Shown piece after piece: positions 4,796 to 27,058 of a stretch of 64,000 nt of DNA (positions are counted from its first letter, which is position 1; every line of letters starts with the position of its first letter). Location of the stretch: NCBI GenBank assembly GCA_014384375.1, contig JACNFY010000034.1, positions 1,674 to 65,673 of the forward strand, written 5' to 3'. The notes below the pieces were generated by a model. It was not told where the DNA came from. It did not search any database and worked only from the letters and a program-made list of their open reading frames with translations. The position numbers were made by a program, and so were the translations under genes. This DNA is from Nanobdellati archaeon (GTDB lineage Archaea > Nanobdellota > Nanobdellia > Woesearchaeales > GCA-2686295).

Positions 4796-4801
4796 TCTTT
4801 T

Positions 4802-6507: not shown

Positions 6508-6559
6508 AATTTTTCCTCACTAAGATTATGAACTAAAAAAATTCTGAATTTTTTTGATA

Positions 6560-7432: not shown

Positions 7433-7595
7433 TTTCCAAACAATTATAAATCCTAATTTATTAATAAATATTGTGTTAGAGGATTATTCTTTTCAAGTTG
7501 TTAATTTGCGTAACTGAATATAGTTTTTAGCAATTTTTATAAATGTGTGCCAATATTTACTTATAGTGGTGGGGCTCTAATATCAAAAAAATAAA

Positions 7596-8340: not shown

Positions 8341-8462
8341 AAGATGATGTAGAAGTACACGCTATATGTATATTGATGTATGATCCAAAACCAGAAAAAG
8401 TTTCTGAAATAAATATCAGAAATTCTTTTAATCAACAAAAACAAACAAGTTAAATGATTTGA

Positions 8463-8936
8463 CTAGAAATATGTCTTTTTAAAACTTTCTTTGAAATATT
8501 TTACTTTATCTTCTCTTAGTTTATCTGTGAATAGATCTAACTCTTCGATGAATTCTTCTGTTTTGGTTATCATATCTTCAACATCGTTCTTTGTTATTTT
8601 GAATTCTGTGTAGTATTGTTTATCTACTCGTTCTTGTTTTGCAAAAGAAATTTCTTTATTTTCTATTCCGAATAATTCTTTGAGTAATATTATTGTTGCA
8701 GCATGATTCTCACATTTTATTCCAATCAAGCGGAATAATGCGATAACTTTGTGAAACATTGCATAATATGCCATTGAAGTTGACTCTTCTAGCAGACTCT
8801 GTGCCAGTAATATTCTTGCTGCTTTAAATGAATTATTTGATTTTTGGGCATATGATTTTGAAACTTCTTTGCTTGCTTCAACTAATTTGATTTTTTCCTC
8901 TGTTACTAGTTTTTGAATAAAGTTTATTTGTCTCAC
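8463..8936 (-). CDS. HEPN-like partner of MNT (putative toxin)
   Basis: Helical 157-aa protein immediately downstream of the MNT with a 4-nt overlap, which is the typical MNT-HEPN arrangement. I could not confirm the R-x4-6-H motif by eye. Confidence 0.35.
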   Translation of the reverse strand: MRQINFIQKLVTEEKIKLVEASKEVSKSYAQKSNNSFKAARILLAQSLLEESTSMAYYAMFHKVIALFRLIGIKCENHAATIILLKELFGIENKEISFAKQERVDKQYYTEFKITKNDVEDMITKTEEFIEELDLFTDKLREDKVKYFKESFKKTYF

Positions 8937-9478
8937 TTTATTAATTGATAAAACCTTTCAAGATTTTGAATGATGACGTGATTCTTTATTATCTCTTTTG
9001 TAAGTAAGTTTTCTTTATCTAGTTCGCCTATTTTTACACTCAGTTTTTCCGATATCAATCTAGTTTTTTCTCTTAATTTTTTATCTGTTGTTTCAAGGTA
9101 AATATCTATGTCGCTGTTTTTTGTTGTGGTTCCTTTTGCTTGACTTCCAAAAAGAGCTATTAGTTCTCCTTTTGTTTTATTCTGTAATTCTTTTATTATT
9201 CTTCTAAGCTTTGGTTGTTGGATTATTTTAAGGAGTTTGTAATGTTCTGTAATGAAAAGATATATTTTTGCTTCTGGTGTTTCTTTAAGAAAGTATGTTT
9301 TGTTCTTTCCTTGTTGTTTAAAATCAACAATGTTTTCTTCTTCTAATTGTTTCATAATTCTCATGACTGTTGATGGGATGAGTCCTAAGTCTTCTCCTAT
9401 TTGCCTAATATGTGAGGGTTCTTTTCTAAGGAGTTCGATAATCTCAAAATCGTTTCTTTTTCGCAACATATGTTGCAT
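8933..9478 (-). CDS. wHTH-fused minimal nucleotidyltransferase (MNT antitoxin-type)
   Basis: N-terminal winged-helix region (IRQIGEDLGLIPSTVMRIMKQLEEENIV) followed by the classic MNT motif ALFGSQAKGTTTKNSDIDIYLE. Confidence 0.6.
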   Translation of the reverse strand: MQHMLRKRNDFEIIELLRKEPSHIRQIGEDLGLIPSTVMRIMKQLEEENIVDFKQQGKNKTYFLKETPEAKIYLFITEHYKLLKIIQQPKLRRIIKELQNKTKGELIALFGSQAKGTTTKNSDIDIYLETTDKKLREKTRLISEKLSVKIGELDKENLLTKEIIKNHVIIQNLERFYQLIK

Positions 9479-9673
9479 AATTGCAACAATGCTATTTAAA
9501 TCTTTCGTTTTTTATTGTAATTGTAAAAAAGAAATATTCAAATAATTTGTATACTACGCTATGTAAATAACATAATAATTTGCTTAAAATGTATGAAACA
9601 TATGATAGTTATGGATAGAAATATATAACTTTTTTAGAAAAGCTTTAATAATTCTTTATTATTATTTTATTTT

Positions 9674-11773
9674 ATGTCTCTTTTTAACAAACCTCTTTTC
9701 AAGCTTTTCTTGACTTTTTGGATTATTTATGCTTCTTTTGCTAATCTTAGTGGTTGGAATGAAAACTCTCGTTTAGATCTAACAAGGGCCATTGTTGATG
9801 AGGGAACTTTTAAGATTGATACTTATGCTAATAATACTGGTGACCGTGCTTATTATAATGGTCATTATTATTCTGACAAGTTTCCAGGGGCTTCTTTCTT
9901 AGCTGTTCCTCCTTATTTTGTTTTTAAACATGTTTTTGGAACTCCAAGCATAAATGATAATTTTTATGAGACAAATCCTGATCCTTTATATAACGGCATG
10001 GTTTTTTTTGTGATAATCTTTACTTCTGCTTTGTTCTCAGCATTAACTGTTGTATTAGTATATAAAACAGCTGGTTTCTTTACAAACAAAAAGAGTCATA
10101 AATATATTGTAGCAATAGCTTATGGCTTAGGAACGATTGCTTTTTCTCAAGCGACATTATTCATGGGTCATGCGATAGCTACTTTCTTTTCATTTGCAGC
10201 TTTTTATTTTGTTTTTAAGATGAGGAAAGAGAAAAAAGATTATTTATTTTTTGCAGGCATTCTTGGAGGATTTGCTATTATAACAGAACCATTAACTTTC
10301 TTGATAATTCTTGGTTGTTTTATTTTAGTCTTATTAACTAAAAAATTAAAGAACGTTCTTAATTTTAGTATTGGTTGCTTTTTGATTCTTTTAATGTTGT
10401 TTGGTTATAACTATGCTGTTTTTGAAGATCCTTTAGCTTCATCATATAATTATGTTGATATTGATTTTTACAGTTTGAGTTATAAGGACTTATCAATATC
10501 AAGCTGTAGTTTTTCTTCTCCCGTTAATGAAAATATTTTTCAGAAAATGAAATATCGAATATTTAAAAATATTCCTTGTAGAAGTTCAACACTTCAATAT
10601 TACAGTCCTGAATTAAATGCTATTGTGAAAGAGACTAATGATTTTAGTGAAGAAAGTTTTTTACTATTATATGAACAAAACTCAGCAGAAGGAACTTTTA
10701 ATTATTCAATTAAGAGAAATACATATTTTAAAAATGGAATAGAACAAGTTATGTACTCAAAAATAGTTCTTATTGGGGATGTATTATTCTATAACAAGAA
10801 TGTAACACAGTACACAGTTTTTGTAAATAAACAATTACTGCCAGTTAATTCTCGAGATTGGAAGAAATCAGCCGATTTTTACTTAGATTCGAATGGTATT
10901 CTTAAATACAATTATTTATTTGGAACTTATTCTTATACTAATTGCCCTTGGTTAAATGAGTATTATTATCCTTTTAATATTAGTAAACTTGAAACTTCAA
11001 AATGTGAGGAGAAGTTCTTCTATAGTTTTAATGGGAGTTTAATGCTTAAAAAAACTATTCGTGCTAATCTTACATATATTGGAAATGAAACATTGAATAT
11101 TAATTCTGAGAATTTTAATGTATACAAATTCAAAAACGAATTTTTTCTAGAACCAGAATATGATTATACTGTCATCATTAGAAATGTTGTTAGATTACTA
11201 TTTTATCCTTATAGAGGTTTGTTATTTTATAGCCCTATATTGTTTGTTTCAATCATAGGTTTGTGTTTCATGTATAGAAAATATAAGTTTGAAGCTATAA
11301 TGATTTCTTTGCTTTTTTTCCTTCTTTTACTTTTTAACGCTCAACAAACACTTTGGTGGGGGGGAACATCTTTTGGGCCAAGACAACTTTTACCCATCAT
11401 ACCTTTTTTAATAATTCCGTTATTGTTCTCTCTTAAAAAAATTAATATAAAATTTATATTATTAATAATGATGATTTCTGTATTTGTTAATCTTGTTGGT
11501 TTGGAAGAGTTAGAACAAAAATATGTGGTTGTTAATGAGGGTATTAGTTTCGAACCAGAACTTTGGAATAAGTTGGACTCATGGCAGCCAATAGCTAATC
11601 CTTTGTTTGATCATTATGCACCGTTATTTGCAAATTATGGTCCAAGAAGTGAGTTGCTTGAAAAAATGTTTGGAGTTAAGTTTATACCTTTTCTTAATGT
11701 ATTATTCTTATTATTAATAATTATCTTTATATTTAAAATAAACATCAGAAAAAGCAGAGTGAATAAAAATTAG
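9674..11773 (+). CDS. GT-C-like multi-TM glycosyltransferase with a large extracytoplasmic C-terminal domain
   Basis: 699 aa. The N-terminal ~240 aa has many TM helices and a VDEGTF loop motif like PMT/ArnT-type transferases. It is followed by an Asn/Tyr-rich soluble domain and further C-terminal TM helices. Confidence 0.45.
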   Translation: MSLFNKPLFKLFLTFWIIYASFANLSGWNENSRLDLTRAIVDEGTFKIDTYANNTGDRAYYNGHYYSDKFPGASFLAVPPYFVFKHVFGTPSINDNFYETNPDPLYNGMVFFVIIFTSALFSALTVVLVYKTAGFFTNKKSHKYIVAIAYGLGTIAFSQATLFMGHAIATFFSFAAFYFVFKMRKEKKDYLFFAGILGGFAIITEPLTFLIILGCFILVLLTKKLKNVLNFSIGCFLILLMLFGYNYAVFEDPLASSYNYVDIDFYSLSYKDLSISSCSFSSPVNENIFQKMKYRIFKNIPCRSSTLQYYSPELNAIVKETNDFSEESFLLLYEQNSAEGTFNYSIKRNTYFKNGIEQVMYSKIVLIGDVLFYNKNVTQYTVFVNKQLLPVNSRDWKKSADFYLDSNGILKYNYLFGTYSYTNCPWLNEYYYPFNISKLETSKCEEKFFYSFNGSLMLKKTIRANLTYIGNETLNINSENFNVYKFKNEFFLEPEYDYTVIIRNVVRLLFYPYRGLLFYSPILFVSIIGLCFMYRKYKFEAIMISLLFFLLLLFNAQQTLWWGGTSFGPRQLLPIIPFLIIPLLFSLKKINIKFILLIMMISVFVNLVGLEELEQKYVVVNEGISFEPELWNKLDSWQPIANPLFDHYAPLFANYGPRSELLEKMFGVKFIPFLNVLFLLLIIIFIFKINIRKSRVNKN

Positions 11774-11801
11774 CAATCTGAAATTAAAAACAAAAAAACT
11801 T

Positions 11802-12905
11802 GTGGAAGAAGACCTATCAAGGTTAGTTTCATTTATTAGCAAGCATTTTAAGAGTTCTACAATTATTCTTGCAGGCAGTTTTTATCATAATGAAGCAACA
11901 ACGTATTCTAGTAATGGAGAGTTAAAATTTTTTAGTGATTATGACATATTCATTGCCTTTGATTACTACAATCCTTTTACATTCATGTTGAATACTTTAA
12001 AATTGAAAAAATTTAAAGTTGAGTTAAAGAAGTTACAGGAGGTTTTGAATAACAAAAAAGTTGATTTGAATTTTATTTGGAGACCATTAATAAAAATGGG
12101 CATCCAGAGAGGAGTCAATGAAGGAAAAGTTTTGTATGGAAATAGAGGTTATATAAGGAAACAAAGAGGAAAGAGATATTTCAGGAATTGCGACTTATTT
12201 TATCTATTAGAACAAAACTACACATTTCTATTGCTAAGTAATCCCTTAATAAAACAAAAAAGTATGGCTTGTTACTTTGTAATAAAAACTGTTTTACAAT
12301 CATTAGAAATACTGTACTTGAGAACATTTAACGAAACCGAAACTTACAACAAGAAATATATTTTAGATAAAATAAGAAATTCAAACTTTATAGATAAAAG
12401 AGAAGAAATAACTTGCAAAAAATGTTTAAACAGAAAGATTGAATCAAAAAAAAACACTATTTTTTATGACACAAATTTATGGTTTGAAGCAAGAGACCTT
12501 TTAGACAAAGTTTTATTTAAGATATTTAAAACAGAAGAGAAAGAAAAGCTATTAAACAAAATATCTAAAAACATAACTTTTCATTTAAAAATCAAAAATG
12601 GGTTATTACTACTGAAATTCTTACTAAAAAACAGAATCAAAGTTAATTATTTTCAAATTCTTAACATACCTTTAATAAATTTCTTCAATAAGTTTAATCT
12701 TGTTCATTGTATAGAAAAAAATTTTGAAATAAACAAAAAACAGCTAACTGAAGTTGAGAACGGTATCTTCAAAATAAACAAAGAGAAAAATAAATTTAGT
12801 GATTCTGAAAAAAGGTTTTTCTGGTCTTTTGAGAAAATAACTACATATAAAAAAGAAAATCCTTTAGAGATTAAAACCGGAGAAAGAAAACATTTTTATT
12901 TCTAA
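11802..12905 (+). CDS. nucleotidyltransferase-fold protein (NTase-1)
   Basis: IILAGSFYHNEATTYSSNGELKFFSDYDIFIAFD is a GS...[DE]h[DE]h pol-beta NTase core, followed by a long helical Lys-rich C-terminal region. Confidence 0.5.
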   Translation: MEEDLSRLVSFISKHFKSSTIILAGSFYHNEATTYSSNGELKFFSDYDIFIAFDYYNPFTFMLNTLKLKKFKVELKKLQEVLNNKKVDLNFIWRPLIKMGIQRGVNEGKVLYGNRGYIRKQRGKRYFRNCDLFYLLEQNYTFLLLSNPLIKQKSMACYFVIKTVLQSLEILYLRTFNETETYNKKYILDKIRNSNFIDKREEITCKKCLNRKIESKKNTIFYDTNLWFEARDLLDKVLFKIFKTEEKEKLLNKISKNITFHLKIKNGLLLLKFLLKNRIKVNYFQILNIPLINFFNKFNLVHCIEKNFEINKKQLTEVENGIFKINKEKNKFSDSEKRFFWSFEKITTYKKENPLEIKTGERKHFYF

Positions 12906-12924
12906 CAATTTTCTCTTTAATCAA

Positions 12925-13698
12925 ATGAACGACCTTTACCAAAATGAAGAATTATTTAATAAATTCTGGACAAACAGAGAAAGGCTTTATCCTTCCAGCA
13001 ATTTCGAAGAATGGAAAAAAGATGTTTTATTTGTAATTCTAGATGATATTATCAAAGAAAACAAAAAGAAAGAACTTAGATTCCTTGATGTTGGTTGTGG
13101 TTTAGGCAGTAATGTTTTGGATTACAGTAAAAAACTAGAGAAACCAAAAGTTTTCTTAATAGATTTATCCAAGAAAGTTATATCAATGATACACAAGGAA
13201 CTAACAACCTCTCAAAATAAATATGTTAAGTCTAAGCAGGCAAGTGCTTTAAAAATTCCTTTTCAAGACAATTATTTCGATTTTGTTTTTAGCAATCAAG
13301 TAAATCATTATTTTAAAGGCGAAGATAGAAAAAAAGCATTCTCAGAATTATATAGGGTTTGTAAACCAAAAGGTCATGTTTTTATTTGTGTTGGGAACAA
13401 GTATTACATTCCCTGGCAATTAACTCATTTTTTTAAAGACAAAGTTTTAGATACTTGGATTCATGGGCATATGAGTTTTTACTCTTATTCTGAATTAAAA
13501 AAATTTATGACTGGTTTTAAACTAAAATATTTATTTGGTATTGGAAATGCATATAGAATCCCGAAAAGTTTTTTATTATTTTTGAATAAAATTTTTTATA
13601 GAAAATATAATCCTTTTTATTTTTACAAACCAGTTGTTCCATTTCCCAAGATTCTTGCTCAATATTTTTATCTTATAGGTAGAAAGGAAAAAAATTAA
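12925..13698 (+). CDS. class I SAM-dependent methyltransferase
   Basis: Motif I LDVGCGLGSN and the post-II segment LYRVCKPKGHVFI. The gap from the upstream gene is 19 nt. Confidence 0.7.
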   Translation: MNDLYQNEELFNKFWTNRERLYPSSNFEEWKKDVLFVILDDIIKENKKKELRFLDVGCGLGSNVLDYSKKLEKPKVFLIDLSKKVISMIHKELTTSQNKYVKSKQASALKIPFQDNYFDFVFSNQVNHYFKGEDRKKAFSELYRVCKPKGHVFICVGNKYYIPWQLTHFFKDKVLDTWIHGHMSFYSYSELKKFMTGFKLKYLFGIGNAYRIPKSFLLFLNKIFYRKYNPFYFYKPVVPFPKILAQYFYLIGRKEKN

Positions 13699-13730
13699 AT
13701 TTAAAAAAGAAAAGTGCTTGAAGGTTAAAT

Positions 13731-14825
13731 ATGAATAACAATAACTCTTTTTTAATGTATGCGTTAAAAAGATCTAAAAACTATTTGTTAAATAATCTGA
13801 ATTATTATTATAGTGGTATAAATTCATCAAAGCCAAATGTTTTTATTTTTGTTTTTACCAAAAAGTGCAACTTTCGTTGCACACACTGTGACATCTGGAA
13901 AGAAAAAAACTTTGGTGATGAGATAAGTCTAGATGATTGGAAAAAAGCAGCGACCAATATCTTCAATTGGGTAGGTCCTTTTATTGCTAGCATCACCGGA
14001 GGAGAAGCTTTTCTAAGAAAAGACTTGTTTGAATTTGCAGATTTTCTGAAAGATAAGTGCATTGAATTAAAATTAAACACTAATGGTTCATTAATCAATG
14101 AAAGGATTGCAAAAAGACTTTCTAAAAGTCCTTTCAAAACCTTCATATTCTCACTTTATAGTCTAAGTAACCATACTAATGATAAGCTTAGGGGTATAAA
14201 AGGATCATATAAAAAAACACTTAGAGCAATTAATTTAATGAATAAATATTGTGAGAAATATGGTTTTAAGAAGAAGATGTGTATAGCTGTGCTAATAACA
14301 AAGTATAACTTATTAGAACTATCTAAGATAGTTATATGGGCTAAAACCATGAATGTAAAGGTAATTTTGCAACCTCTTCTAAAAAATTTTGATACAGATT
14401 TTGAATCAGATTGGATTGATAGAAGTAAACTTTGGCCTAATGATAGAGAATTAATTCACCAAATTTTTAAGGAAATAATTCATATGAAAAAAAATGGTTT
14501 TCCAATCAGCAATGATATATCACAATTAGAAATGATGAAGAACTATTATTTAAGAAATAAAGAAGAAGTGCTCAAACATAAATGCAAAGTTGGAGTTGAC
14601 AACATCACAATTTATCAAGATGGTAATATTAAGTTTTGTTCTTTAGCTAATAATATTGGGAACATAAAAAATAATTCGATAAGCAAGATATGGAAGTCTA
14701 TAACTGCAAAAGAAGAAAGACAAACTTTATTTGATTGCAAAAAAGATTGCAGAGTTCATCCCTGCTATTATGACAAACCATTAAAAGCTAAGATTAATGG
14801 GTTTATTAGTGAATATAAAAACTAG
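13731..14825 (+). CDS. radical SAM/SPASM-domain enzyme (rSAM-1)
   Basis: CNFRCTHC motif at residue ~46, ITGGEAF, and a C-terminal CKVG...FCSLAN...CKKDCRVHPC auxiliary-cluster Cys pattern. There is no N-terminal RRE-sized extension. Confidence 0.7.
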   Translation: MNNNNSFLMYALKRSKNYLLNNLNYYYSGINSSKPNVFIFVFTKKCNFRCTHCDIWKEKNFGDEISLDDWKKAATNIFNWVGPFIASITGGEAFLRKDLFEFADFLKDKCIELKLNTNGSLINERIAKRLSKSPFKTFIFSLYSLSNHTNDKLRGIKGSYKKTLRAINLMNKYCEKYGFKKKMCIAVLITKYNLLELSKIVIWAKTMNVKVILQPLLKNFDTDFESDWIDRSKLWPNDRELIHQIFKEIIHMKKNGFPISNDISQLEMMKNYYLRNKEEVLKHKCKVGVDNITIYQDGNIKFCSLANNIGNIKNNSISKIWKSITAKEERQTLFDCKKDCRVHPCYYDKPLKAKINGFISEYKN

Positions 14826-14837
14826 ATAAGATAAAAA

Positions 14838-15854
14838 TTGGTTAACTACAATTTGAAATTTTCATTAAAAGAAACTCCTAAGATAAGAAAAGATGTAATC
14901 CTAAACCTAAATAAAATTGTTGTATATTTAGAAGAAAAAATTCCTAATTCCGCAATTGGATTGTGGGGAAGCTTCTCATATGGTGAGGGAAGAGTAAAAA
15001 AGGTAAATGGAACTCTAAAATATCAAGATGATATGGACATATTTATATATACAAATTCACTTGTTAAATACTTAAAATGGCATAATAAAATTAAAAATCT
15101 AGGCGAAAAATTAAATATTAATGCGGAAGTATGTGTCTGGGTTAAATGTATTCCATTAATTAGGTTAGGATTATCTTTCTGCGGCTTTCCAAAAATGTTG
15201 AATAAAAAAAAACTTGATATGTTCAAAGAAAAAAGATTTCCTCAAATTATAGAATCAACAAAATATTTATTAGAAAGCCATCAGTATATGTTCAGATTTA
15301 TAACAACAAAAAATAGAGAGAATCTAATTAAAGCTTATATTAGATTGTATAGATCATTAGAAATTTATGATAGAAAAAACAAAGAAGTATTTTCATTAAA
15401 AAACAATCTAAAAAGCTTAGAGAAATACAGAAAAGAGCTAACTAAACAACAGAACGATATTCTAAAATCTGCAATAAAAATCAGACTTGGTATGAAAAGT
15501 AAAACTAAAATTGATTTTTCATCAATATTTAAAATGAAGTCATTGTTTGAGAAAATGTTTTATAAGTTAAATAATAAAAATGGGCTCTTTATTGTTAGAT
15601 ATCAACTAATAATTTGGAAGTATTTGTTTTTTAATAAAAAGCCAATAAAGATACTTATTAATTTTAATAAACAAAGATTAGCTGCGAGTAATTATTTATT
15701 AAACTCAATAACTGAGAAAAAGCGAATAAATGATGAGTACCTGAAAAAAGCAGAATATATAGTAACAAATATTTTATCTGAAAAGCCAAGAACTAATTCA
15801 AAAGAAAAAAGATTCAAGTGGGTTGCTGATAAGTTATGGGAAATCTACAAATGA
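14838..15854 (+). CDS. nucleotidyltransferase-fold protein (NTase-2), paralog of 16471..17502
   Basis: GLWGSFSYGEGRVKKVNGTLKYQDDMDIFIY NTase core. It aligns along its whole length (~45% identity by eye) with the ORF at 16471. Confidence 0.55.
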   Translation: MVNYNLKFSLKETPKIRKDVILNLNKIVVYLEEKIPNSAIGLWGSFSYGEGRVKKVNGTLKYQDDMDIFIYTNSLVKYLKWHNKIKNLGEKLNINAEVCVWVKCIPLIRLGLSFCGFPKMLNKKKLDMFKEKRFPQIIESTKYLLESHQYMFRFITTKNRENLIKAYIRLYRSLEIYDRKNKEVFSLKNNLKSLEKYRKELTKQQNDILKSAIKIRLGMKSKTKIDFSSIFKMKSLFEKMFYKLNNKNGLFIVRYQLIIWKYLFFNKKPIKILINFNKQRLAASNYLLNSITEKKRINDEYLKKAEYIVTNILSEKPRTNSKEKRFKWVADKLWEIYK

Positions 15855-16458
15855 TTTAAAAATATTTAAATATAGACTTCAAATAGTTATTTTGATGATA
15901 TCTCCAATTATTAACAATCTAATTTATTTGCTTCTCATTATTTTGTGTTTATGTATAATAATAGTAACAGTAATTATTTTTCTTAGCCGAAAAGCAATTG
16001 GAATTTCAAAGACTGATAAGAGATTCATGAAGATAGCTTACAAAGAAGCTGAGATGGCTCTAAAAGCTAAAAACGGCCCTGTTGGCGCTGTTTTGACTAT
16101 TAATGATAAAATAATTGCTAAAGCTCATAATCAAGTTGAAACAAGTAAAAATTACTTTGCTCATGCAGAAATACTAACTATAAATAAAGCTCTTAGAAAA
16201 CTAAACATAAAAAATTTTGGCGAAATAAAAAACAAAGCTATATTATATACTACTTATGATCCTTGTACATTTTGTGAAGGATTTATTATCTGGGCAAAAG
16301 TTTCAAGAATTATTGTGGGGAAAAATGAACCATTAGTGAACTCTATAAAAAAAGACATGTCTCATTTAACTTATAAAATAAGAAAAAAAGGCGGGTTATA
16401 CATAGACATACAAACAAAATTATTCAAAAAATTCCTAATCGTCAATATTAAAAAATAA
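15823..16458 (+). CDS. membrane-anchored CDA-fold deaminase (TadA/CDA-like)
   Basis: HAEILTI ... YDPCTFCEGFII are the H[AC]E and PCxxC zinc-binding motifs of the cytidine/tRNA-adenosine deaminase fold. There is an N-terminal hydrophobic helix. The ORF overlaps the upstream gene, and the in-frame Met at 15895 is a more likely start. Confidence 0.6.
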   Translation: MLISYGKSTNDLKIFKYRLQIVILMISPIINNLIYLLLIILCLCIIIVTVIIFLSRKAIGISKTDKRFMKIAYKEAEMALKAKNGPVGAVLTINDKIIAKAHNQVETSKNYFAHAEILTINKALRKLNIKNFGEIKNKAILYTTYDPCTFCEGFIIWAKVSRIIVGKNEPLVNSIKKDMSHLTYKIRKKGGLYIDIQTKLFKKFLIVNIKK

Positions 16459-16470
16459 ATACTAATTTGT

Positions 16471-17502
16471 GTGATAAGATTGAGAAATTATAATTTTAAC
16501 TTTGCTTTAAATGAAACTAAAGAAATAAGAGAAAAAATTTGTTCTGATATTGATAAGATTGTTAGTTATTTAGAAGGTCTTATTTCTGGTTGTGCTGTTG
16601 GATTGTGGGGTAGTTTTTCTTTTGGTGAAGGACGTGTAAAAGAAGTTAACAATAAACTAGAGTATGTAGATGATCTGGATTTTGTTGTCTATACTAATTC
16701 AATTGTAAAGTTTTTCAAATGGAATAATAATAAAACGCTAAAGAATCTGAATGAAAAATTAAATATCAATGCAGAAATCTGTGTTTGGGTTAAATGTATT
16801 CCATTAATAAAGCTTAGATTGTTTTTTTGTGGGTTTCCAAGAATACTAAATAAAAAAGGGGTTAATATTTTCAAAGAAAAGAATATTCCAACAATACATG
16901 TTTATTCAACTTATTTACTAAAAAGCTATTATCGTCTCTTTAAATATGTATTAACAAACGAAAAACATTTTCTGAGGAAAGCATATATTGAAGTTTTCAG
17001 GTCTTTAGTGTTCAGTAAAAAAAGGGACAAAGATACTTTTTCATTGAAGCATAATTTAAATCAGTTAAACGAGTATAAGAAAATTCTAACTAAAGAGCAG
17101 TATAGAATAATTGAGTGTTCTATAGAAAGCCGATTGAGTTTAAAAACAAAAAGTGAAATAGGTTATGATTCTATATCTAAAATGAAACCCTTATATGACA
17201 AACTTTTTAATAAATATTATAGAACAACTAGCACATTCTCTATGAAGTATTACTTTAAACTTATTAAATTTCTTTTACAAGAAAAAAAGATTCCCAACAT
17301 TTTCATTAATTTTAGCAAAAAGAGATTTTTAATTCATCATTATTTATTGCAAGCTTTAGAAAAAAATAAAAAGATAAATGAGTCCTATTTGAAAAAAGCA
17401 GAAGATACAATTAAAAAAATGTGTTATGAAACAAACCAATACAAATCTTTAGAAGAAAGATTTTCATGGTGTATAAAAAATTTAGAGTATATCTGGAGAT
17501 AA
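16471..17502 (+). CDS. nucleotidyltransferase-fold protein (NTase-3)
   Basis: GLWGSFSFGEGRVKEVNNKLEYVDDLDFVVY. Clear paralog of the ORF at 14838. Confidence 0.55.
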   Translation: MIRLRNYNFNFALNETKEIREKICSDIDKIVSYLEGLISGCAVGLWGSFSFGEGRVKEVNNKLEYVDDLDFVVYTNSIVKFFKWNNNKTLKNLNEKLNINAEICVWVKCIPLIKLRLFFCGFPRILNKKGVNIFKEKNIPTIHVYSTYLLKSYYRLFKYVLTNEKHFLRKAYIEVFRSLVFSKKRDKDTFSLKHNLNQLNEYKKILTKEQYRIIECSIESRLSLKTKSEIGYDSISKMKPLYDKLFNKYYRTTSTFSMKYYFKLIKFLLQEKKIPNIFINFSKKRFLIHHYLLQALEKNKKINESYLKKAEDTIKKMCYETNQYKSLEERFSWCIKNLEYIWR

Positions 17503-17503
17503 A

Positions 17504-18541
17504 ATGCTGCGAAAACAAGTGAAAGAAGGTACAAATTTTATAAGAAGGAGATTATCTCATCTAACACGTTTAAATATTGTAAAACCCAGTTATTTTACAT
17601 TTGAACTCACTAATAAATGTAATTTTTTTTGTAAATATTGTGATCAATGGAAAATTAAACCTGATAAAGAACTTTCATTACTTGAATGGAAGTGTGTTTC
17701 TAAAAAAATATTTGACTGGATGGGGCCTTATAATGTTAAGCTAAGTGGAGGAGAACCTTTTTTGAAGAAAAATATTTTTGATCTTATAAGATACAACAAT
17801 AATTTAGGGATTAAAACCATGATTAATTCGAATGGTTATTTAATAGATGATAAGTTGGCAGAAAAAATTGTTAAATCAAATGTTCATTTTATTAAAATTT
17901 CTTTGATTAGCTTTAACAAAGATGTGAACGAGGATTTAAGGGGAAGAAAAGATGTATTTGAAAAAAGCATGAATGCTGTTAAGAAATTAGTTTATTGGAA
18001 GCAGAAACTTAACTCAAATATAAACATATCTCTTGCGTTTTTAATGAATTCTCAGAATTTAGAAGAAGTTGAAGAAATGATTTTATGGGCGAAGAAAATA
18101 GGCGTTAGGATTTATTTACAAGTTTTAGTGCATAATTTCAAATCAGACGTACGAGAGAATTTGGAAAAAAGCGAGCTTTGGCCTAAAAATAAGAAACAAA
18201 TAAAAGAAGTTTTCAGAAAAATTATTTTGCTTAAAAAAAATAATTATCCTATAGTTCAATCTATGCCTATATTAAAATTAATGAGAGAATATTTTTTAAG
18301 AAATGAGAAGATAATATTAAGAACACCTTGCAAAATTTCCTATTACAGCTTTATTGTTGATCCTGAAGGAAATGTGAGATTTTGTTTTGGAAGGCATAAA
18401 AATGGGTTAGTTGGTAACATAAAAGAAGATTCGCCTAAAGATATATGGTTCAGTAAACAATCTAATATTGAAAGAGAAAATATTCGTAATTGCAGGGAAT
18501 TTTGCAGGGTTCATAAACCTGGAAGAGGTTTTTTAATCTGA
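17504..18541 (+). CDS. radical SAM/SPASM-domain enzyme (rSAM-2)
   Basis: TNKCNFFCKYC, LSGGEPFLKK, and C-terminal CKISYY...FCFGRH...CREFCRVH. Paralog of the ORFs at 13731 and 18846. It lies 1 nt after NTase-3. Confidence 0.7.
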   Translation: MLRKQVKEGTNFIRRRLSHLTRLNIVKPSYFTFELTNKCNFFCKYCDQWKIKPDKELSLLEWKCVSKKIFDWMGPYNVKLSGGEPFLKKNIFDLIRYNNNLGIKTMINSNGYLIDDKLAEKIVKSNVHFIKISLISFNKDVNEDLRGRKDVFEKSMNAVKKLVYWKQKLNSNINISLAFLMNSQNLEEVEEMILWAKKIGVRIYLQVLVHNFKSDVRENLEKSELWPKNKKQIKEVFRKIILLKKNNYPIVQSMPILKLMREYFLRNEKIILRTPCKISYYSFIVDPEGNVRFCFGRHKNGLVGNIKEDSPKDIWFSKQSNIERENIRNCREFCRVHKPGRGFLI

Positions 18542-18545
18542 AAAT

Positions 18546-18849
18546 ATGAAAATGGAAAAGTTAAAACCTTTTAGCTTTACTCTGAATGAGACTCCAACAA
18601 TAAGAAGAAAAATTTGTTCTGACCTTGATAAAATAGCAGATTATATAGAGAAAACAGTTCCGAATTCTGTAGTCGGTTTATGGAGTGCCTTTTCATACGG
18701 AAAGGGAAGGGTAAAAGAGATAGATGGAAAATATCTTAAAAAAGCAGAAAAAATCTTAGAGGATTACTTTTGTGAAGAAAGAATGGGCATCTCTAAAAAA
18801 AGAGAGATTTGCACGAGTTGCTGATAAATTAGTGGAACTTTACAAATGA
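18546..18849 (+). pseudogene. decayed NTase paralog (NTase-4 remnant): internal deletion plus 3' frameshift
   Basis: The 92-aa ORF keeps the N-terminal ~60 aa of the NTase family, but the GS motif is degraded to SAFSYGKG and the acidic triad is missing. It then jumps to the family C-terminus (YLKKAE...). The last family segment ERFARVADKLVELYK* is readable only in the -1 frame and ends at a TGA overlapping the ATG of rSAM-3 at 18846. Confidence 0.5.
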
Positions 18850-19913
18850 AACAAAAAACAAAAAGAATTGCAGATTACATAAAGAATCAAATAACATATT
18901 ACACTACAACAAGTATGAACCAGCCACATCTTATAGAGCTAATACTCACATTTAGATGTAATCAAAAATGTCCGCATTGTGATTCCCAAAAAATAAAAGG
19001 AACAAAAGAGTTAACAATAAATCAATGGAAAGATATAGTGAAGAAGATAAATAGATGGCTTGGACCAAAGCCAATATGCTTAGCTGGCGGAGAACCTCTT
19101 TTAAAGAAAGGTGTTTACGATTTGGTAAGTTCTATATCAAAAAATAATAAGGTATATATTATGACAAATGGCCAACATGATGAGAAAACAGCAAAGAGAT
19201 TGGTTGAGTCAAATATTTCGCAAATACTAATATCCTTTTATAGTTTAAATCCGAGAATTCATGATTCTATTAGAGGAACAAAGGAAGCTCATAAAAGAGC
19301 AAAGAATTTTATAGAGGAATTGCTTAAAGAGAAGAAAAAACAAAAAAAAGATATCAGGATAGACCTATCATTTCTGTTAACCTCTAAAAATTTCAGAGAG
19401 GCTCCTGCTTTTATAAAACATTTTTCAAAAAAGGAAATATACACTTCTTTAACCCCTTTGAGAAGGAACCCGTTAGATATTTTTAGTGAAGATTTCAAGT
19501 TTTATAATAAATACTGGTATAAAAAAAGTTCTTTATGGATAAATGATAAAGAAGAATTTGTTAAAATTATAAAAAAAATAATTTGTATGAAAAAGAAAGG
19601 TTATTTAATAAATAACTACATTAATACTTTAAAAAAGTTTGTTGATTACTTTGAAAATCCTTCACAATTAAATAAATTCAATTGCTATATGCCATTATTA
19701 AATTTTGTTATTGGACCAATGGGTGATGTTCGTCTTTGTTATTATTCTAGGAATATTGGAAATGTTATAAAAAAGGATCCTAAAGGTATATGGTATTCGG
19801 AAGAACGAATGAACGAGATAAAAAGATTGAAAAAATGCACGAATTATTGCAGAATACATAACAACTATAATTTCATAAACTTAGATGAGAAGATAAGATT
19901 TCTTTTTGAGTAA
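18846..19913 (+). CDS. radical SAM/SPASM-domain enzyme (rSAM-3)
   Basis: TFRCNQKCPHC, LAGGEPLLKK, and C-terminal CYMP...LCYYSRN...CTNYCRIH. Confidence 0.7.
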   Translation: MKQKTKRIADYIKNQITYYTTTSMNQPHLIELILTFRCNQKCPHCDSQKIKGTKELTINQWKDIVKKINRWLGPKPICLAGGEPLLKKGVYDLVSSISKNNKVYIMTNGQHDEKTAKRLVESNISQILISFYSLNPRIHDSIRGTKEAHKRAKNFIEELLKEKKKQKKDIRIDLSFLLTSKNFREAPAFIKHFSKKEIYTSLTPLRRNPLDIFSEDFKFYNKYWYKKSSLWINDKEEFVKIIKKIICMKKKGYLINNYINTLKKFVDYFENPSQLNKFNCYMPLLNFVIGPMGDVRLCYYSRNIGNVIKKDPKGIWYSEERMNEIKRLKKCTNYCRIHNNYNFINLDEKIRFLFE

Positions 19914-20022
19914 ATATAAAAACATAAATTTTTGTTTTGATTCTCTGGCTTTATTAATTTTTTTACCTAGTTTTCTAAACTTCCATAAAATTATTAAATA
20001 AATTCAATATAGTTGTTTTTAC

Positions 20023-23000
20023 ATGAAGAAACTTCTTAAAATCCCTTATGTAAATTCTGATGATATACTTAATATAATCGATGATACTTTGAATAAGAAA
20101 AAACAAGCTTTAGTTTTTGTTAATTCAAAAAGGGGTGCTGAGTCTCAGGCTGAAAGAATCGCTATGAAAACAAAAGTTAATGATTCAAAGCTCACGAAGC
20201 TTTCAGAAGACATTTTGAAAGTGTTGTCTTCTCCAACCAAGCAGTGTCGTAGGTTATCTATCTGTGTGAAGAAAGGCTCTGCTTTTCACCATGCAGGTCT
20301 AACTTCAAAGCAGCGAGAATTGATTGAAGATAATTTTCGAACTGGTCTAATAAAAGTAATTTGTGCGACTCCAACTTTATGTCTTTCTGGTGATTCTATG
20401 ATTTGGAACGAGGTGTCTGAAACTAAAGTTTCTAAATTTAAAACTTCTAATTCTCTTTTTGTGCTTTCAAAGAATAAGTTAATCAACATGAAATCTCAAA
20501 AAATAGAAAAAATAAAGAATTCTTCAAAACTTATTCAGATTTCTTCTGTGTCTGGGTATTCAATTAAAGTTACTCCAAATCACAAAATGTTTGTCAGGAG
20601 AGGTAGTAAAAAAGTACTTTTGGAGGTAAAGAACCTTAAAAAGACCGATAAAGTTGCAACTATCAGAAGGCTAAATATTTCTAGAACAAGAAATCCTTCA
20701 ATAAATTTTTTTGTTAAAGACAATGATTTGCCAATAACAAACTATAAATTTAATCCTGATTTATCTTATCTAATTGGTGTTATGTTGGGCGATGGTTATT
20801 CTGGAGCTGAAACAAATAAAACTAAAATTATTTACAAAGGTTCTCCTTCTATAGTAGGAATTGACGAAGAAATATTTTCTGAAATACTAACTGTTTGTAA
20901 CATATTAGAAATAAGTCAAAGAAAAACTAAGAATTCCCACGGAACCCCACAATTAGTTCTTGGAAAGAATAATTGGTTTAGAGAGTTTCTTGCTCGTTGC
21001 GGTGTTGAAAAAAGAGATAAAAAACATATTTCTAGTAAGCTAATGAATATGAATCTTGAGAATGCTGCTTCGTTATTAAGAGGTTTATTTGATACGGATG
21101 GCTATGTTGATAAAAGATTTGGACCTGGATTTGGAAATATTTCATATATTCTAATTAAGCAAATTCAAAAACTCCTCTTAAGATTTGGAATTGTTTCAAC
21201 AATCAGAAAAAGAAAAGCAAGTTCTATGAATATTTATGGAAAAGAATACAAAACAGTTCCTTTTTTTGAATTAAATATTCATCAAAAAAGAAGCATACTT
21301 GACTTTTATAGGTTTGTAGGCTTTAATATTAAAAGAAAACAAACTATTCTCCTAAATTTAGTTTCAAAAATAGCGTCTAATGTTAACTATTTGAGTTGTA
21401 ATAATTGTGATTACAAAATTTATAAAGATTTGTTTTCAGGTCGAACAAAAAAACAAAAAGATTGGGGTAAAATAAAACTTGAAGTCATTAAATTACTTGG
21501 TAAAAAAGGAGAATTAGGGTCTAGAGATTTGAAGAGGTTGTTGAAATATGAGCCAAAAAAGAAAGACTTGCGTTTAAATCATCATTATGAGTTTATTGAA
21601 AAAAGAAAAATTGGATCTTTAAGTAAAAATGAATGGTTTTGGAGTTTGAATAAAATTGGGATTTGGATGTTCAATAATATTATTAATAAGAATAAAAAAT
21701 TTATAGAATTTTTCAAGTTACAAGAGTGTCCTTTATGTAATTCTGAATTAAATTGGATTATTAGGAAAGGCTGGAGAGATTCTGATTTTGATGGAGATAT
21801 TTTTTGGGATAGAATTCGAGAAATAAAAGAAGTTGAGAGTGAACAAAATGTTTATGATGTTATTCTACCTAAAAAACCCAAGAATAATCATTTATTTGTA
21901 GCAGACGGATTCATAGTTCATAATTCTATGGGCGTTGATTTACCTGCATTCAGAGTTATAATTCGTGACTTGAAAAGATATGGCGGTCCTTGGGGTATGT
22001 ATGATATTCCTGTCCTTGAGTATGAGCAGCAATCAGGCAGAGCCGGTCGCCCAGGGAAAGAGGATTACGGAGAAGCCATTTGCATTGCTAAGAATGATTC
22101 TCAGAAAGAGAAGATTTTTGATAAATATGTTAACGGCGAGCCAGAGGAAATTTATTCAAAGCTCGCAGTTGAGCCTGTTCTAAGGACTTATGTTCTCAGC
22201 CTTATTGCAACAGAGTTTGTTAATGACAAAAAAGCCCTATTTGATTTCTTTGATAAAACATTCTACGCACACCAATACGAGGACTTGGAAAAGCTTCATA
22301 AAATATTGGAGAAGATTATCGACTTGCTTGCAGAGTGGAAGTTCATAAAGATTCCTGAGAAAGAGGATTTTGTTTCTGGTGATGAGTTTGGAAAAGAGAA
22401 GTATGAAGCTACATTGCTTGGGAAAAGGGTTTCTGAGCTTTACCTGGATCCTTACACGGCATATTTCATAATTACTTGTTTGCGAAAAGCCACTTCTAAA
22501 ACCATAAAAGCATTTTCATACCTACATACAGTTTCTAACTGCTTGGAGATAAGGCCTTTATTGAGAGTTAAAATGTCTGAGTATGAGGATATTCAAGGAA
22601 ATATGCTTCAGTATGAGAGCTTTTTGTTGGATGAACAACCTTCTAGCTATGATGAGTCTTACGATGAATTCTTGAACTCTATAAAGACTGGTTTGTTCTT
22701 TCAAGATTGGATTGATGAAAAGGATGAAGAGTATTTGTTAGAGACTTATAGTATTAGACCTGGGGAGATTCATGCAAAATTAGAGATTGCAGATTGGTTG
22801 TGTTATGCAACTATAGAGCTGGCTAGGATGCTAAGATTCCAGCCATTAATGAAAGACATTACAAAAGTAAGAGTCAGGCTGAAGTATGGTGCTAAGGAGG
22901 AGTTGTTGCCGTTGTTGAAGTTGAAGAATATTGGACGAGTTAGAGCCAGGAAAATGTATAATAACAAGTTGAAATCTTTGACAGATGTAAAGAACGTTGA

Positions 23001-23151
23001 TATAACGACTCTTGCTTTCTTGATAGGCAGGGCCACTGCTGTATCCGTTAAGAAACAGTTAGGCCAAGAGTATGATCCAAAGAAAATTGTCGTTAGAGAA
23101 AATAAGAGGAAAGGACAGATATCGTTGAAGGATTATGGTAAGAAAAAGTAA
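20023..23151 (+). CDS. Hel308/Hjm (Ski2-like) helicase, C-terminal half only (RecA2 + WH + ratchet + HhH domain 5), containing an intein
   Basis: VFVNSKRGAE (motif IV), then ATPTL|intein|SMGVDLPAFRVII (motif V), QQSGRAGRPG (motif VI), and the C-terminal HhH LLKLKNIGRVRARKMYNN. No Walker A or DEVH domain lies upstream, since the ORF at 18846..19913 is an rSAM. Confidence 0.7.
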   Translation: MKKLLKIPYVNSDDILNIIDDTLNKKKQALVFVNSKRGAESQAERIAMKTKVNDSKLTKLSEDILKVLSSPTKQCRRLSICVKKGSAFHHAGLTSKQRELIEDNFRTGLIKVICATPTLCLSGDSMIWNEVSETKVSKFKTSNSLFVLSKNKLINMKSQKIEKIKNSSKLIQISSVSGYSIKVTPNHKMFVRRGSKKVLLEVKNLKKTDKVATIRRLNISRTRNPSINFFVKDNDLPITNYKFNPDLSYLIGVMLGDGYSGAETNKTKIIYKGSPSIVGIDEEIFSEILTVCNILEISQRKTKNSHGTPQLVLGKNNWFREFLARCGVEKRDKKHISSKLMNMNLENAASLLRGLFDTDGYVDKRFGPGFGNISYILIKQIQKLLLRFGIVSTIRKRKASSMNIYGKEYKTVPFFELNIHQKRSILDFYRFVGFNIKRKQTILLNLVSKIASNVNYLSCNNCDYKIYKDLFSGRTKKQKDWGKIKLEVIKLLGKKGELGSRDLKRLLKYEPKKKDLRLNHHYEFIEKRKIGSLSKNEWFWSLNKIGIWMFNNIINKNKKFIEFFKLQECPLCNSELNWIIRKGWRDSDFDGDIFWDRIREIKEVESEQNVYDVILPKKPKNNHLFVADGFIVHNSMGVDLPAFRVIIRDLKRYGGPWGMYDIPVLEYEQQSGRAGRPGKEDYGEAICIAKNDSQKEKIFDKYVNGEPEEIYSKLAVEPVLRTYVLSLIATEFVNDKKALFDFFDKTFYAHQYEDLEKLHKILEKIIDLLAEWKFIKIPEKEDFVSGDEFGKEKYEATLLGKRVSELYLDPYTAYFIITCLRKATSKTIKAFSYLHTVSNCLEIRPLLRVKMSEYEDIQGNMLQYESFLLDEQPSSYDESYDEFLNSIKTGLFFQDWIDEKDEEYLLETYSIRPGEIHAKLEIADWLCYATIELARMLRFQPLMKDITKVRVRLKYGAKEELLPLLKLKNIGRVRARKMYNNKLKSLTDVKNVDITTLAFLIGRATAVSVKKQLGQEYDPKKIVVRENKRKGQISLKDYGKKK
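20380..21924 (+). mobile_element. LAGLIDADG homing-endonuclease intein (515 aa) in helicase motif V
   Basis: Starts with Cys (CLSGDSMIW) immediately after ATPTL and ends ...FIVHN followed by Ser +1. Internal LAGLIDADG blocks are LIGVMLGDGY and LLRGLFDTDGYV. Confidence 0.7.
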
Positions 23152-24829: not shown

Positions 24830-27058
24830 TTATTCGTCACCTCCGTTTTCGTCTTCTTCTTGAGGTCCAGAGTCTTCTTCGTCGTCTAACTCTTCTTCGT
24901 CCTCTTCTTCGAGGTCTTCACACTCGCCTGCATCACAGAATTCATCTGCCTCACAGTCAGCATCTTCGACACACTCTAGCTCTTCTTCCTCTTCGACATC
25001 CTCTCCTTCCTTGGCGTCGTCAGCTAGGTCTTTTGCTTGTTCAGCTAGTTCTTCAGCTTCAGCATAGTTGCCAGCTTCGAAAGCTTCGATTGCTTGATTA
25101 AGAAGCTCTTTTGCATCTTCGAGGAAAGCTAAGGATTCTGATACATCTTTGCCGTCTGCTTCTCTCTCGGCTATCTCTTCCTCTGCCTCATCGATTTTTT
25201 CCTCGGCATCAAGGATTTTGTCCTCTGCTTCATCCTTGGCATCTTCATCTTCTTCCTCGATTTCTATTTCTAGTTCGTGTTCGATTTCAATCTCTGATTC
25301 TAAGTCATCACCTTCAGCAGATTCGACCAAGGCAATAACCTGCTCTTTTAAGTTATCCCATAATGTTTGTTGCTCACTTGTTAACTCGCCTTCTACTTCG
25401 TCTTTTTCAACAATTGTCTCGTTGTCTTCCTTTTTCACTTTTAGTTTTAGCTCGAATTTACCTTCCACGCCTTCAAAACTTGCAACAAGCTCATCAAGTA
25501 CTGCTTGAGTTTCAGCAGAGAGTTCAACGTCCCCTGTGACCTCAAACTTGCTTTCTTCCTCAACTTCAACGATTTCGTACTCAACTTCTTCTTCATCTAC
25601 TTCTTCTTCCTCATCGATGTCGAAATGCACGCCAGCACCTCTCAAGTCTTTCACAATGTCTTTGAGTATGTTGTGCGCTTCTTTCAAAGCGTTATGTGCT
25701 TCTTTGGTAAAGGTTTTGGCTTGTTTTATAAGTTCGCCCTGTCCTTTGCCCACTGAAGCTTTGGCTTGTCTGAATAGTTCTTCACCAGTCTTGAACTTCT
25801 GCCTGGCTTCATCTATCCTCATGCTGAAGAGGTCGACTTTTATGTCAATGTTCTCGACTTCTATACCTTCCTCTTCCATGATTGCCAAAGCATTGTCAAG
25901 CCTTGCTTCTAAGTGTTCGCTTCTTTTAAGGATTTCACTGACTTTCGACCTGACGATTTTTTCTGCATGGAGCTTGATTTTATGTTTCACTTTCTTCCAT
26001 GCTTTCATGATTACTTTGCCAGCTTCTTTGACTTCATCCTTTGTAATTGCTGCTTCAACTTCTGCTTTTGCTTCTTCTAAGATAGCTATTTTTTCGTCTA
26101 TGTCAGCAATGATTTCATGTAATTCATCTTCGCTCAAGTCATCGTTTGACTCTACTTTTAGTTTCACTCTTTCTAATGAAGAGATGGTCATGTCTGCTGC
26201 GTGAATCAAGAATGTTTTTGCATGCTCGATAGCTACCTCTTCATCGCCAGCTGCTACAGCTTCTTCCCAAGCTTCTCTTTCACTTCGGAACTTAATCTTT
26301 ACTTCGTTGTAGAGCTTGACTTTCTCTTTGAAGTTCTTGTTAACTTCTTTGATTTTTTTCTCAGCAACAACTCTTTTCTTGAATTTCTTTTCTTTGTCAA
26401 CAATTTTTAACTTGAACTTTCCAAGCTCTTTCTTAATTTGCTCTTCATCCATCTCAGAAATCTTTTTTAATCTAGTTCTGTCTAGATGTGCAAGCTTCTT
26501 AAGTTGTTCTTCATCAAGTTTGGCTATTTTTTCAAGTCTTTCATCCTTGATTTTTGCAATCTTTCTAAGTTTATCATCATCAAGCTTTGCAAGTTTTTCA
26601 AGGTGTTTCTTGTCAAGTTTGGCAAGCTTTTCAAGTCTTTCATCTTTTAGTTTTACTAGTTTCTCAAGATGTTTCTTATCAAGCTTTGCTAGTTTTCCAA
26701 GTCTTTCATCGCTCAATTTACCGAGCTTTGCTCTTCTTTCATCGTCTAAGTTTAAGAGCATTTTTTGTTTGTCTTCAGGCACATTCTCAAGTTTCCTTAG
26801 TCTTTCAGCGTCTACTGCTCTTACTCGCATTATATCATCTTTGTCTAGTCTAACTTCCTCTCTGCATTCCTCTCTTGCCCTTTCAGGACCGATGTTTGGG
26901 AACCTGTCTTTGACTAGTCTTATGCAGTCATCAATGTTGTCCTGTGCTTTCATCCTCTTCCTAAAGTCAGAGTCGATTCTTTCCTGTCCAAGAGCTGGTA
27001 CTATGCTCAACAGAAAGATGGCCAGTATTATTATTGCTATTTTTCTCATCTTCATCAC
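24830..27058 (-). CDS. secreted coiled-coil repeat protein with acidic Cys-containing C-terminus
   Basis: Signal peptide MMKMRKIAIIILAIFLLSIVPALG, then ~600 aa of K/E/D-rich heptads containing 15-aa tandem repeats (KLAKLDKKHLEKL...). The C-terminal tail is ...ECVEDADCEADEFCDAGECEDLEEEDEEE. Confidence 0.6.
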   Translation of the reverse strand: MMKMRKIAIIILAIFLLSIVPALGQERIDSDFRKRMKAQDNIDDCIRLVKDRFPNIGPERAREECREEVRLDKDDIMRVRAVDAERLRKLENVPEDKQKMLLNLDDERRAKLGKLSDERLGKLAKLDKKHLEKLVKLKDERLEKLAKLDKKHLEKLAKLDDDKLRKIAKIKDERLEKIAKLDEEQLKKLAHLDRTRLKKISEMDEEQIKKELGKFKLKIVDKEKKFKKRVVAEKKIKEVNKNFKEKVKLYNEVKIKFRSEREAWEEAVAAGDEEVAIEHAKTFLIHAADMTISSLERVKLKVESNDDLSEDELHEIIADIDEKIAILEEAKAEVEAAITKDEVKEAGKVIMKAWKKVKHKIKLHAEKIVRSKVSEILKRSEHLEARLDNALAIMEEEGIEVENIDIKVDLFSMRIDEARQKFKTGEELFRQAKASVGKGQGELIKQAKTFTKEAHNALKEAHNILKDIVKDLRGAGVHFDIDEEEEVDEEEVEYEIVEVEEESKFEVTGDVELSAETQAVLDELVASFEGVEGKFELKLKVKKEDNETIVEKDEVEGELTSEQQTLWDNLKEQVIALVESAEGDDLESEIEIEHELEIEIEEEDEDAKDEAEDKILDAEEKIDEAEEEIAEREADGKDVSESLAFLEDAKELLNQAIEAFEAGNYAEAEELAEQAKDLADDAKEGEDVEEEEELECVEDADCEADEFCDAGECEDLEEEDEEELDDEEDSGPQEEDENGGDE
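26390..26790. repeat. in-frame ~45-nt tandem repeats inside the coiled-coil gene
   Basis: Repeated DNA units of the form caagctttgcaag(t/c)tt(t/c)tcaag(g/t)...ttcttgtcaagtttggc are visible. They encode LDKKHLEKLAKLD/LKDERLEKLAK units. Confidence 0.5.

Follow-up and report, generated by a model that had tools for sequence, protein, structure and literature searches.

Nearly all archaea encode the Ski2-like helicase Hel308 (Hjm), the prokaryotic relative of human HELQ and of the POLQ helicase domain. Split protein genes have been documented in DPANN archaea, including those for reverse gyrase, alanyl-tRNA synthetase and others in N. equitans and for Dph1/2 in Woesearchaeota (PMC6349945), and inteins have been recorded in archaeal Ski2-like helicases (COG1204; 11 cases, in Euryarchaeota; Novikova et al. 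2016, PMC4760082) as well as in aLhr2 helicases (PMC8301817). The DPANN review (PMC6349945) does not name Hel308 among its split genes, a 2024 survey of archaeal Ski2-like helicases (PMC10946056) does not mention a split Hel308, and our targeted full-text search, with its incomplete coverage leaving absence unproven, found no published description of one. Here, we analyzed a 64-kb stretch of contig JACNFY010000034.1 from a Woesearchaeales archaeon (hereafter the window), in which a forward-strand open reading frame (ORF) at 20023..23151 encodes the C-terminal half of a Hel308 interrupted by an intein. We consider it likely that this ORF is the RecA2-to-HhH (helix-hairpin-helix) subunit of a two-gene Hel308, the precursor of which would splice itself to 527 amino acids (aa) and then pair non-covalently with a RecA1 subunit of about 220 aa encoded by an unlinked gene.

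The ORF begins with ATG and encodes 1042 aa. A first-pass annotation, made from the letters of the window alone, had proposed a Hel308-like helicase represented only by its C-terminal half, and both parts of this proposal agree with the homologs that we identified. The nearest intein-free homolog (P0001) has the same length as the predicted spliced product (527 aa), is 83% identical to the spliced extein, and matches P. furiosus Hjm (PDB 2zj2) over residues 228-716 at E=1e-83 in phmmer, its first 16 aa remaining unaligned; its next PDB sequence matches are to Hel308 of A. fulgidus and of S. solfataricus. An AlphaFold model of P0001 built with 36 homologs, with a mean predicted local distance difference test (pLDDT) score of 83, retrieved nine Hel308/Hjm chains first (E 1e-31 to 1e-27, template-modelling score 0.65-0.69), followed by Pol theta and Brr2, and the best NCBIfam matches of the C-half are four Hel308-type equivalog models. 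The N-extein aligns to Hjm from residue ~212/228 on, and the ORF starts at about Hjm residues 213-217, just past the first RecA2 beta-hairpin. The earlier statement that the ORF opens inside RecA2 was therefore correct, while its placement of the opening at motif IV was not, the start lying about 27 aa upstream of that motif. Also as stated earlier, no RecA1 domain is encoded upstream: the ORF itself has no DEAD/ResIII domain in Pfam and does not carry RecA1 motifs Q-III in the same polypeptide, no single ORF in the window holds both a Walker A motif and a DExH box, and tblastn with RecA1 domains of unsplit Hel308 and of stand-alone N-terminal halves gave zero matches in the window.

This C-half-only architecture is shared by a large family. 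When the spliced extein was searched against a set of 5.8 billion proteins, each of the best 120 matches was C-half-only; these range from 407 to 578 aa (most are 510-546 aa), and full-length members among them show 93-100% query coverage and 57-83% identity. All matches with a named source among these 120 are from Woesearchaeota, Nanoarchaeota or Nanoarchaeia, and an N-terminal segment M-x-K-x-L-K-I is common to the C-half homologs. Among the 150 closest 50%-identity cluster representatives, 45 are C-half-only and 84 are full length, the rest being fragments. The evidence from these alignments supports a conserved, clade-wide C-half-only state rather than an error. The split is the derived condition, since unsplit single-ORF Hel308 proteins of 711-744 aa occur in other metagenome-assembled genomes (MAGs) labelled Woesearchaeota (loci L008, L011, L014, L022 and L026).

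A complementary family accounts for the missing half. A search with the RecA1 part (aa 1-230) of P0138, the nearest unsplit protein, retrieved a large group of stand-alone DEAD/ResIII proteins of about 219-229 aa, carrying the annotation 'DEAD/DEAH box helicase [Candidatus Woesearchaeota archaeon]' and found in the same taxa as the C-halves. One such N-half (P0285) gave 3246 matches at E<=1e-20, a number that possibly includes full-length Hel308, and nearly all of its best 120 matches are 219-229 aa long. Motifs Q, I, Ia, Ib, II (DExH) and III are invariant in 36 of 36 aligned N-halves. P0285 aligns to Hjm residues 8-213, matching domain 1 of archaeal Hel308/Hjm, and its top PDB matches are the same Hel308 entries as those of the C-half. 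Both halves have the same NCBIfam model as their best match, and on the 739 positions of NF002654 the N-halves span 1-217 and the C-halves 221/224-720; by this measure the two families tile one Hel308 end to end, with neither gap nor overlap. Their ends are likewise colinear with unsplit Hel308, the N-halves closing with ...WRPVKLhkGiy..GeieF(Y) and a stop codon and the C-halves opening with MxKxLKIP, and the lengths of the two add up to about 745 aa, against 711-744 aa in unsplit proteins. The break leaves the first RecA2 beta-hairpin on the N-half, given a Hjm RecA1/RecA2 domain boundary that we take to be near residue 199-200. In a model of the N-half (pLDDT 89), a terminal hairpin of lower confidence (strands at 213-216 and 219-222) comes after the RecA1 core, and residues 1-13 of the C-half model form a coil; these two ends would fit strand complementation on assembly. 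Taken together, the sequence comparisons support reading the C-half-only ORF as one part of a split gene, as had been thought likely from the window alone.

The two halves were never found adjacent in flanks of 2-10 kb (10 kb where fetched) around the genes of 6 C-half and 5 N-half populations. The C-half loci (L001-L007, L098-L103 and L112-L126) and the N-half loci (L016, L088-L097, L104-L111 and L127-L140) lie in unrelated neighborhoods, and the only recurrent C-half neighbor is a downstream NMD3 gene in the closest relatives of the window. Pairing was achieved by shared assembly: ENA ERZ27248920 and Logan SRR8437217 each contain an exact N-half (P0452) as well as an exact C-half (P0120), on different contigs of 35-36% GC each. 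This evidence places the two in the same sample and not in the same genome, both assemblies possibly deriving from one run, and the tetranucleotide correlation between the two contigs (r=0.966), the highest value seen, is barely discriminating. No assembly shared with an opposite half was found for P0304, P0399, P0349, P0014, P0033 or P0009. A comparison of 20 N-halves with 10 C-halves by accession proximity and locus-tag prefixes gave no pair, the nearest (CMO89 for the N-half and CMO90 for the C-half; MBI2652669 and MBI2654390) belonging to different MAGs, and a fused N+C alignment searched against GTDB genomes picked up only N-half patterns, 79 of the 80 returned loci being unsplit Hel308. 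One apparent N/C match, at 2872 bp, was rejected; its upstream gene, which runs off the contig end, measures at least 358 aa and is too long for an N-half.

Several of these results weigh against a two-gene Hel308. The N-half of the window's organism was not found within the 64 kb, both halves were not found together in one genome or MAG, with pairing succeeding at the level of the sample only, and genomes of the split clade may also carry an unsplit Hel308 paralog. In addition, neither half reaches the curated cut-off of the NF002654 equivalog model (887 bits), the window ORF scoring 443, P0001 471 and the N-halves 272-281, nor do both halves summed, though such scores are expected from half-proteins of a divergent clade. 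The alternative that gains most from the first two points is an orphan C-half lacking a Hel308 RecA1 partner in this organism, which might serve as an ATPase-dead DNA-binding or scaffold factor or work with another RecA1-like partner, the stand-alone N-half family then belonging to other lineages or having a role of its own. We regard this as improbable. Motifs IV, IVa, V and VI are invariant in 36 of 36 aligned C-halves, including the Q..GRAGRP arginine finger, and make sense only beside an ATP-bound RecA1; moreover, the N-half family is comparable in size, carries the same taxon labels and ends within a few residues of the C-half start, and the exact pair P0452/P0120 sits in the same assemblies.

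A second alternative is that the ORF is a truncated pseudogene or an artefact, its 5' half having been lost when a low-GC island of 20 kb (window 1-20000) was inserted, or having gone missing through mis-assembly or a sequencing error. The gene start does coincide exactly with a break in composition, from ~27% GC upstream (1-20000) to ~35% downstream (22000-64000), and the upstream neighbors vary among relatives. Against this, the identical 1042-aa protein is present on 9 separately recorded contigs from at least 3 sequencing runs, with identical flanking genes in the 3 places shown, as far as each contig reaches; the truncated ORF is thus no artefact of assembly or sequencing. More than 100 homolog clusters share the same N-terminus and length, the catalytic motifs are invariant, and the same truncated gene occurs in relatives with entirely different upstream genes. 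Nor was a hidden in-frame continuation found, which the first-pass annotation had named as the observation that would overturn its reading: an in-frame TAA stands at 19999, 8 codons 5' of the ATG, both other frames are stop-rich, and a complete radical SAM/SPASM gene (18846..19913) ends 109 nucleotides (nt) 5' of the helicase ORF. The 109-nt AT-rich spacer between the two (19914..20022, forward strand) had been described as promoter-like, and it does hold a TATA-like element, ATTATTAAATAAA, at 19990-20002, some 33 nt 5' of the ATG. In 7 orthologous C-half genes, a comparable A-rich or TATA-like element lies 24-35 nt 5' of the ATG while the upstream genes are unrelated, and this conserved position suggests that the spacer acts as the C-half gene's own archaeal-type promoter and that the gene is therefore probably an independent transcription unit. 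Its mRNA would be leaderless or have a very short leader, since the TATA-like box is so close to the start codon. With these observations, a pseudogene or artefact is effectively refuted.

Weaker still is covalent joining of the halves by protein trans-splicing through a split intein, for which the N. equitans DNA polymerase provides a precedent in Nanoarchaeota and to which an intein-prone gene family might seem open, yet which is highly improbable given that the N-halves end GEIEF(Y) and stop, with no IntN extension of ~100 aa, that the C-halves start MxKxLKI (e.g. MKKLLKIP), with no IntC of ~35 aa ending in HN and a nucleophile, and that the summed halves come so close in length to unsplit proteins.

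Returning to the two-gene Hel308, we propose that a Hel308/Hjm-type Ski2-like helicase is encoded as two unlinked genes in a large Woesearchaeota/Nanoarchaeota (DPANN) clade. The N-gene, which in this organism would lie elsewhere in the genome, would supply RecA1 motifs Q, I, Ia, Ib, II and III together with the first RecA2 beta-hairpin, while the ORF in the window would supply the remainder of RecA2 with motifs IV, IVa, V and VI, the winged helix, the ratchet and the HhH domain. The C-subunit would be translated as the 1042-aa precursor, from which the intein would excise itself through Cys1, His-Asn and +1 Ser chemistry. Because neither half carries a split-intein fragment, their ends being colinear with unsplit proteins, the two polypeptides would associate non-covalently as a heterodimer, rebuilding the ATP-binding cleft between RecA1 and RecA2. 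Beta-strand complementation between the C-terminal hairpin of the N-half and the N-terminal segment of the C-half is the likely mode of assembly, and the assembled halves would be expected to have helicase activity.

The domains of the C-half, all on the forward strand, follow in the expected order. The N-extein (aa 1-119; 20023..20379) comprises the N-terminal part of RecA2 as aligned to Hjm, with Pfam Helicase_C at aa 23-117. Its motifs are IV (QALVFVNSKRGAE, aa 28-40), IVa (AFHHAGL, aa 87-93) and, directly before the intein, the opening half of V (ATPTL, aa 115-119). The intein (aa 120-634; 20380..21924), assigned by Pfam and sequence boundaries as class 1 with a LAGLIDADG domain, separates this from the C-extein (aa 635-1042 and the stop codon; 21925..23151), which was identified by Pfam, the NCBIfam Hel308 models and the fold match. 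The C-extein begins with the +1 Ser and the remainder of motif V (SMGVDLPA) and continues with motif VI (QQSGRAGRPG, aa 669-678), 34 aa farther on. Three Pfam domains complete it: the winged helix HTH_61 (aa 683-776, nt 22069-22350), the ratchet domain 4 (Helicase_dom4_arc, PF21280; aa 832-956, nt 22516-22890; E=3e-29) and the HhH domain 5 (HHH_5; aa 963-1013, nt 22909-23061). Conceptual splicing yields the RecA2 motifs QALVFVN, AFHHAGL, ATPTL-SMGVDLPA and QQSGRAGRPG.

The intein itself had been recognized at first reading, with its 515-aa length, Cys1, His-Asn, +1 Ser, LAGLIDADG blocks and position between ATPTL and SMGVDLPA, and each of these features held up. It extends from Cys120 ('CLSGDS') to Asn634 ('VHN', with HN at 633-634) and is followed by Ser635. 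Block B is VTPNH (aa 184-188), within GYSIKVTPNHKMF (aa 178-190), and blocks F/G read 'VYDVILP...LFVADGFIVHN', so that the class 1 signature residues (Cys1, block B TxxH, His-Asn and +1 Ser) are all present. Acidic residues are kept in both LAGLIDADG motifs, LIGVMLGDGY (aa 250-259) and LLRGLFDTDGYV (aa 351-362), and Pfam assigned Intein_splicing (6e-17) and LAGLIDADG_3 (PF14528; 3.5e-20). The intein is in frame, its removal restores colinearity with intein-free homologs such as the 527-aa P0001, and it is more AT-rich than the exteins (27.6% GC vs 34-38%; third-position GC 0.20 vs 0.27-0.40). The closest solved inteins by sequence are those of the archaeal V-ATPase A-subunit (VMA; PDB 7qsu and 7qss, E=2e-6).

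Homologous inteins occupy the identical site in two further C-half-only proteins, P0121 (1040 aa; intein 58% and extein 55% identical to the window) and P0137 (1028 aa; 44% and 49%). More broadly, the motif V site is occupied in 12 of the 150 Hel308 cluster representatives, both split and unsplit, the latter including P0152, P0159, P0163, P0183, P0202, P0231 and P0249, and every junction inspected reads TPTL/CL...HN/S. In intein-free close relatives, the site is ACT CCA ACT TTG GCA ATG GG (ACTCCAACTTTGGCAATGGGTGTTGAT; protein TPTLAMG), with Ala (GCA) at +1, whereas the window has TCT there, encoding the Ser nucleophile needed for splicing. These comparisons support motif V as a recurrent homing site for Hel308 inteins, consistent with its earlier description as a typical one, and the endonuclease domain would explain the sporadic, allelic distribution of the intein through homing. 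A literature search for a catalogued Hel308 intein site found general statements only, and no meaningful repeats were found flanking the gene or the intein.

Between the LAGLIDADG domain and block F, the intein contains an insert of about 115 aa (aa 459-572; 21397-21738) with no Pfam match. Four Cys in a CxxC...CxxC pattern (CNNC...CPLC) are conserved in it, as is a 'GELGS' segment. The insert is common to the inteins of the window, P0121 and P0137, and may be a zinc-binding DNA-recognition module. We also observed a second Hel308 intein site in motif VI (EYEQQ/C...HN/CGRAGRP, at position ~382 of P0138), which in the set of 150 cluster representatives is used roughly as often as the one in motif V. 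It is occupied in C-half-only proteins (P0122, P0124 and P0134) as well as unsplit ones (P0175, P0181, P0195, P0207, P0217, P0251 and P0256), and one protein of 1689 aa (P0234) has inteins in both motifs.

A different, second fission of Hel308 was seen on a complete Woesearchaeota chromosome (CP070803.1, 288647-295759; L027, 2989-7113). There, a first ORF of 371 aa contains RecA1 and RecA2 and stops just past motif VI (QCAGRAGRP*), and the second piece (MEEKYGEAISIAK..., from the winged helix onward) starts some 2.45 kb farther along the same strand, beyond four unrelated ORFs. We lean, by a narrow preference, toward a wider hypothesis in which the only Hel308 of this DPANN clade is an obligate two-subunit helicase whose parts rejoin within RecA2 through beta-strand complementation, independent breaks of the gene have occurred two or more times in the phylum (the second break being the one after motif VI in CP070803.1), and inteins in motif V or motif VI gate maturation of the C-subunit in some lineages, making a three-piece assembly.

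Two features of the loci examined concern the N-half genes and their labels. In one population (L132-L137), a half-size Diphthamide_syn gene (228-231 aa; at about 4097-4792 in L132) lies about 400 nt 3' of the N-half gene, and because Dph1/2 has been reported as split in Woesearchaeota (PMC6349945), this would place two half-genes side by side. Contigs with archaeal Hel308 or Woesearchaeota N-halves also occur in MAGs labelled Gammaproteobacteria, Thermotogaceae or Omnitrophota (L016, PCBA01000034.1; L020; L029; L057); these are probably mis-binned DPANN contigs.

The 20 kb upstream of the helicase gene encode a PMT-type glycosyltransferase, a methyltransferase, a deaminase and three radical SAM/SPASM enzymes. 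In relatives, this place is taken by other sets of radical SAM, glycosyltransferase or sulfatase genes, and because these sets differ, the region looks like a variable island; ARAGORN found no tRNA gene in the window, and hence none marking an island boundary. Tandem paralogous modules lie at 16471-19913, the first consisting of a 343-aa protein without Pfam match and a radical SAM/SPASM gene (17504-18541), and the second of a 92-aa copy of the 343-aa protein with an internal deletion (its first 54 aa are 57% identical) and the radical SAM/SPASM gene at 18846-19913, which is 32% identical to the other. An exact 16-nt repeat, ATTAAATAAATTCAAT, occurs in this last gene (19667-19682) and over the TATA-like box (19993-20008), and may be due to chance in AT-rich DNA. 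Downstream, on the reverse strand at 24830-27058, lies a gene whose 742-aa product has an N-terminus resembling a signal peptide, contains long stretches of KLAKLDxxxLEKL-type repeats and is extremely acidic in its C-terminal half (E and D runs).

A natural, clade-wide fission between RecA1 and RecA2 would offer a ready system for how a superfamily 2 (SF2) motor tolerates being built from two chains, and the split would let the two halves be labelled or controlled separately, with the intein as a further possible point of post-translational control. It also bears on genome annotation. Under current pipelines, the halves are called 'hypothetical protein', 'helicase-related protein' or 'DEAD/DEAH box helicase', so that surveys of gene content can count Hel308 as missing or truncated in Woesearchaeota and Nanoarchaeota, which biases conclusions on the DNA-repair capacity of DPANN archaea.

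Compared with archaeal Hel308/Hjm of known structure (PDB 2zj2; 2p6r, A. fulgidus; 2va8, S. solfataricus), the C-half has the same order of RecA2, winged helix, ratchet and HhH domains and the same motifs IV-VI; the canonical enzyme, however, is one chain of ~700 aa, whereas here two unlinked genes would encode it, with the break at about Hjm residues 213-217. As in other DPANN split genes, a conserved informational-processing protein is divided into two ORFs that tile the ancestor, with unsplit orthologs in relatives, but the Hel308 split is common to a very large clade instead of being confined to one highly reduced genome. The intein resembles published inteins of Ski2-like and aLhr2 helicases, which are likewise class 1 with a nested LAGLIDADG endonuclease in an ATPase-core motif of an SF2 repair helicase. 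The published Ski2-like cases are listed for Euryarchaeota, while the host here is a DPANN half-gene and the intein has the extra four-Cys insert; the window thus extends these inteins from Euryarchaeota to DPANN. With the VMA inteins, it has the splicing blocks and LAGLIDADG core in common, although the similarity is low, the host protein and site differ, and the Cys-rich insert of about 115 aa is absent from the aligned region. Since DPANN split genes and Ski2-like helicase inteins have both been published, a Hel308 half-gene with an intein brings together two known kinds of element and is not a new kind.

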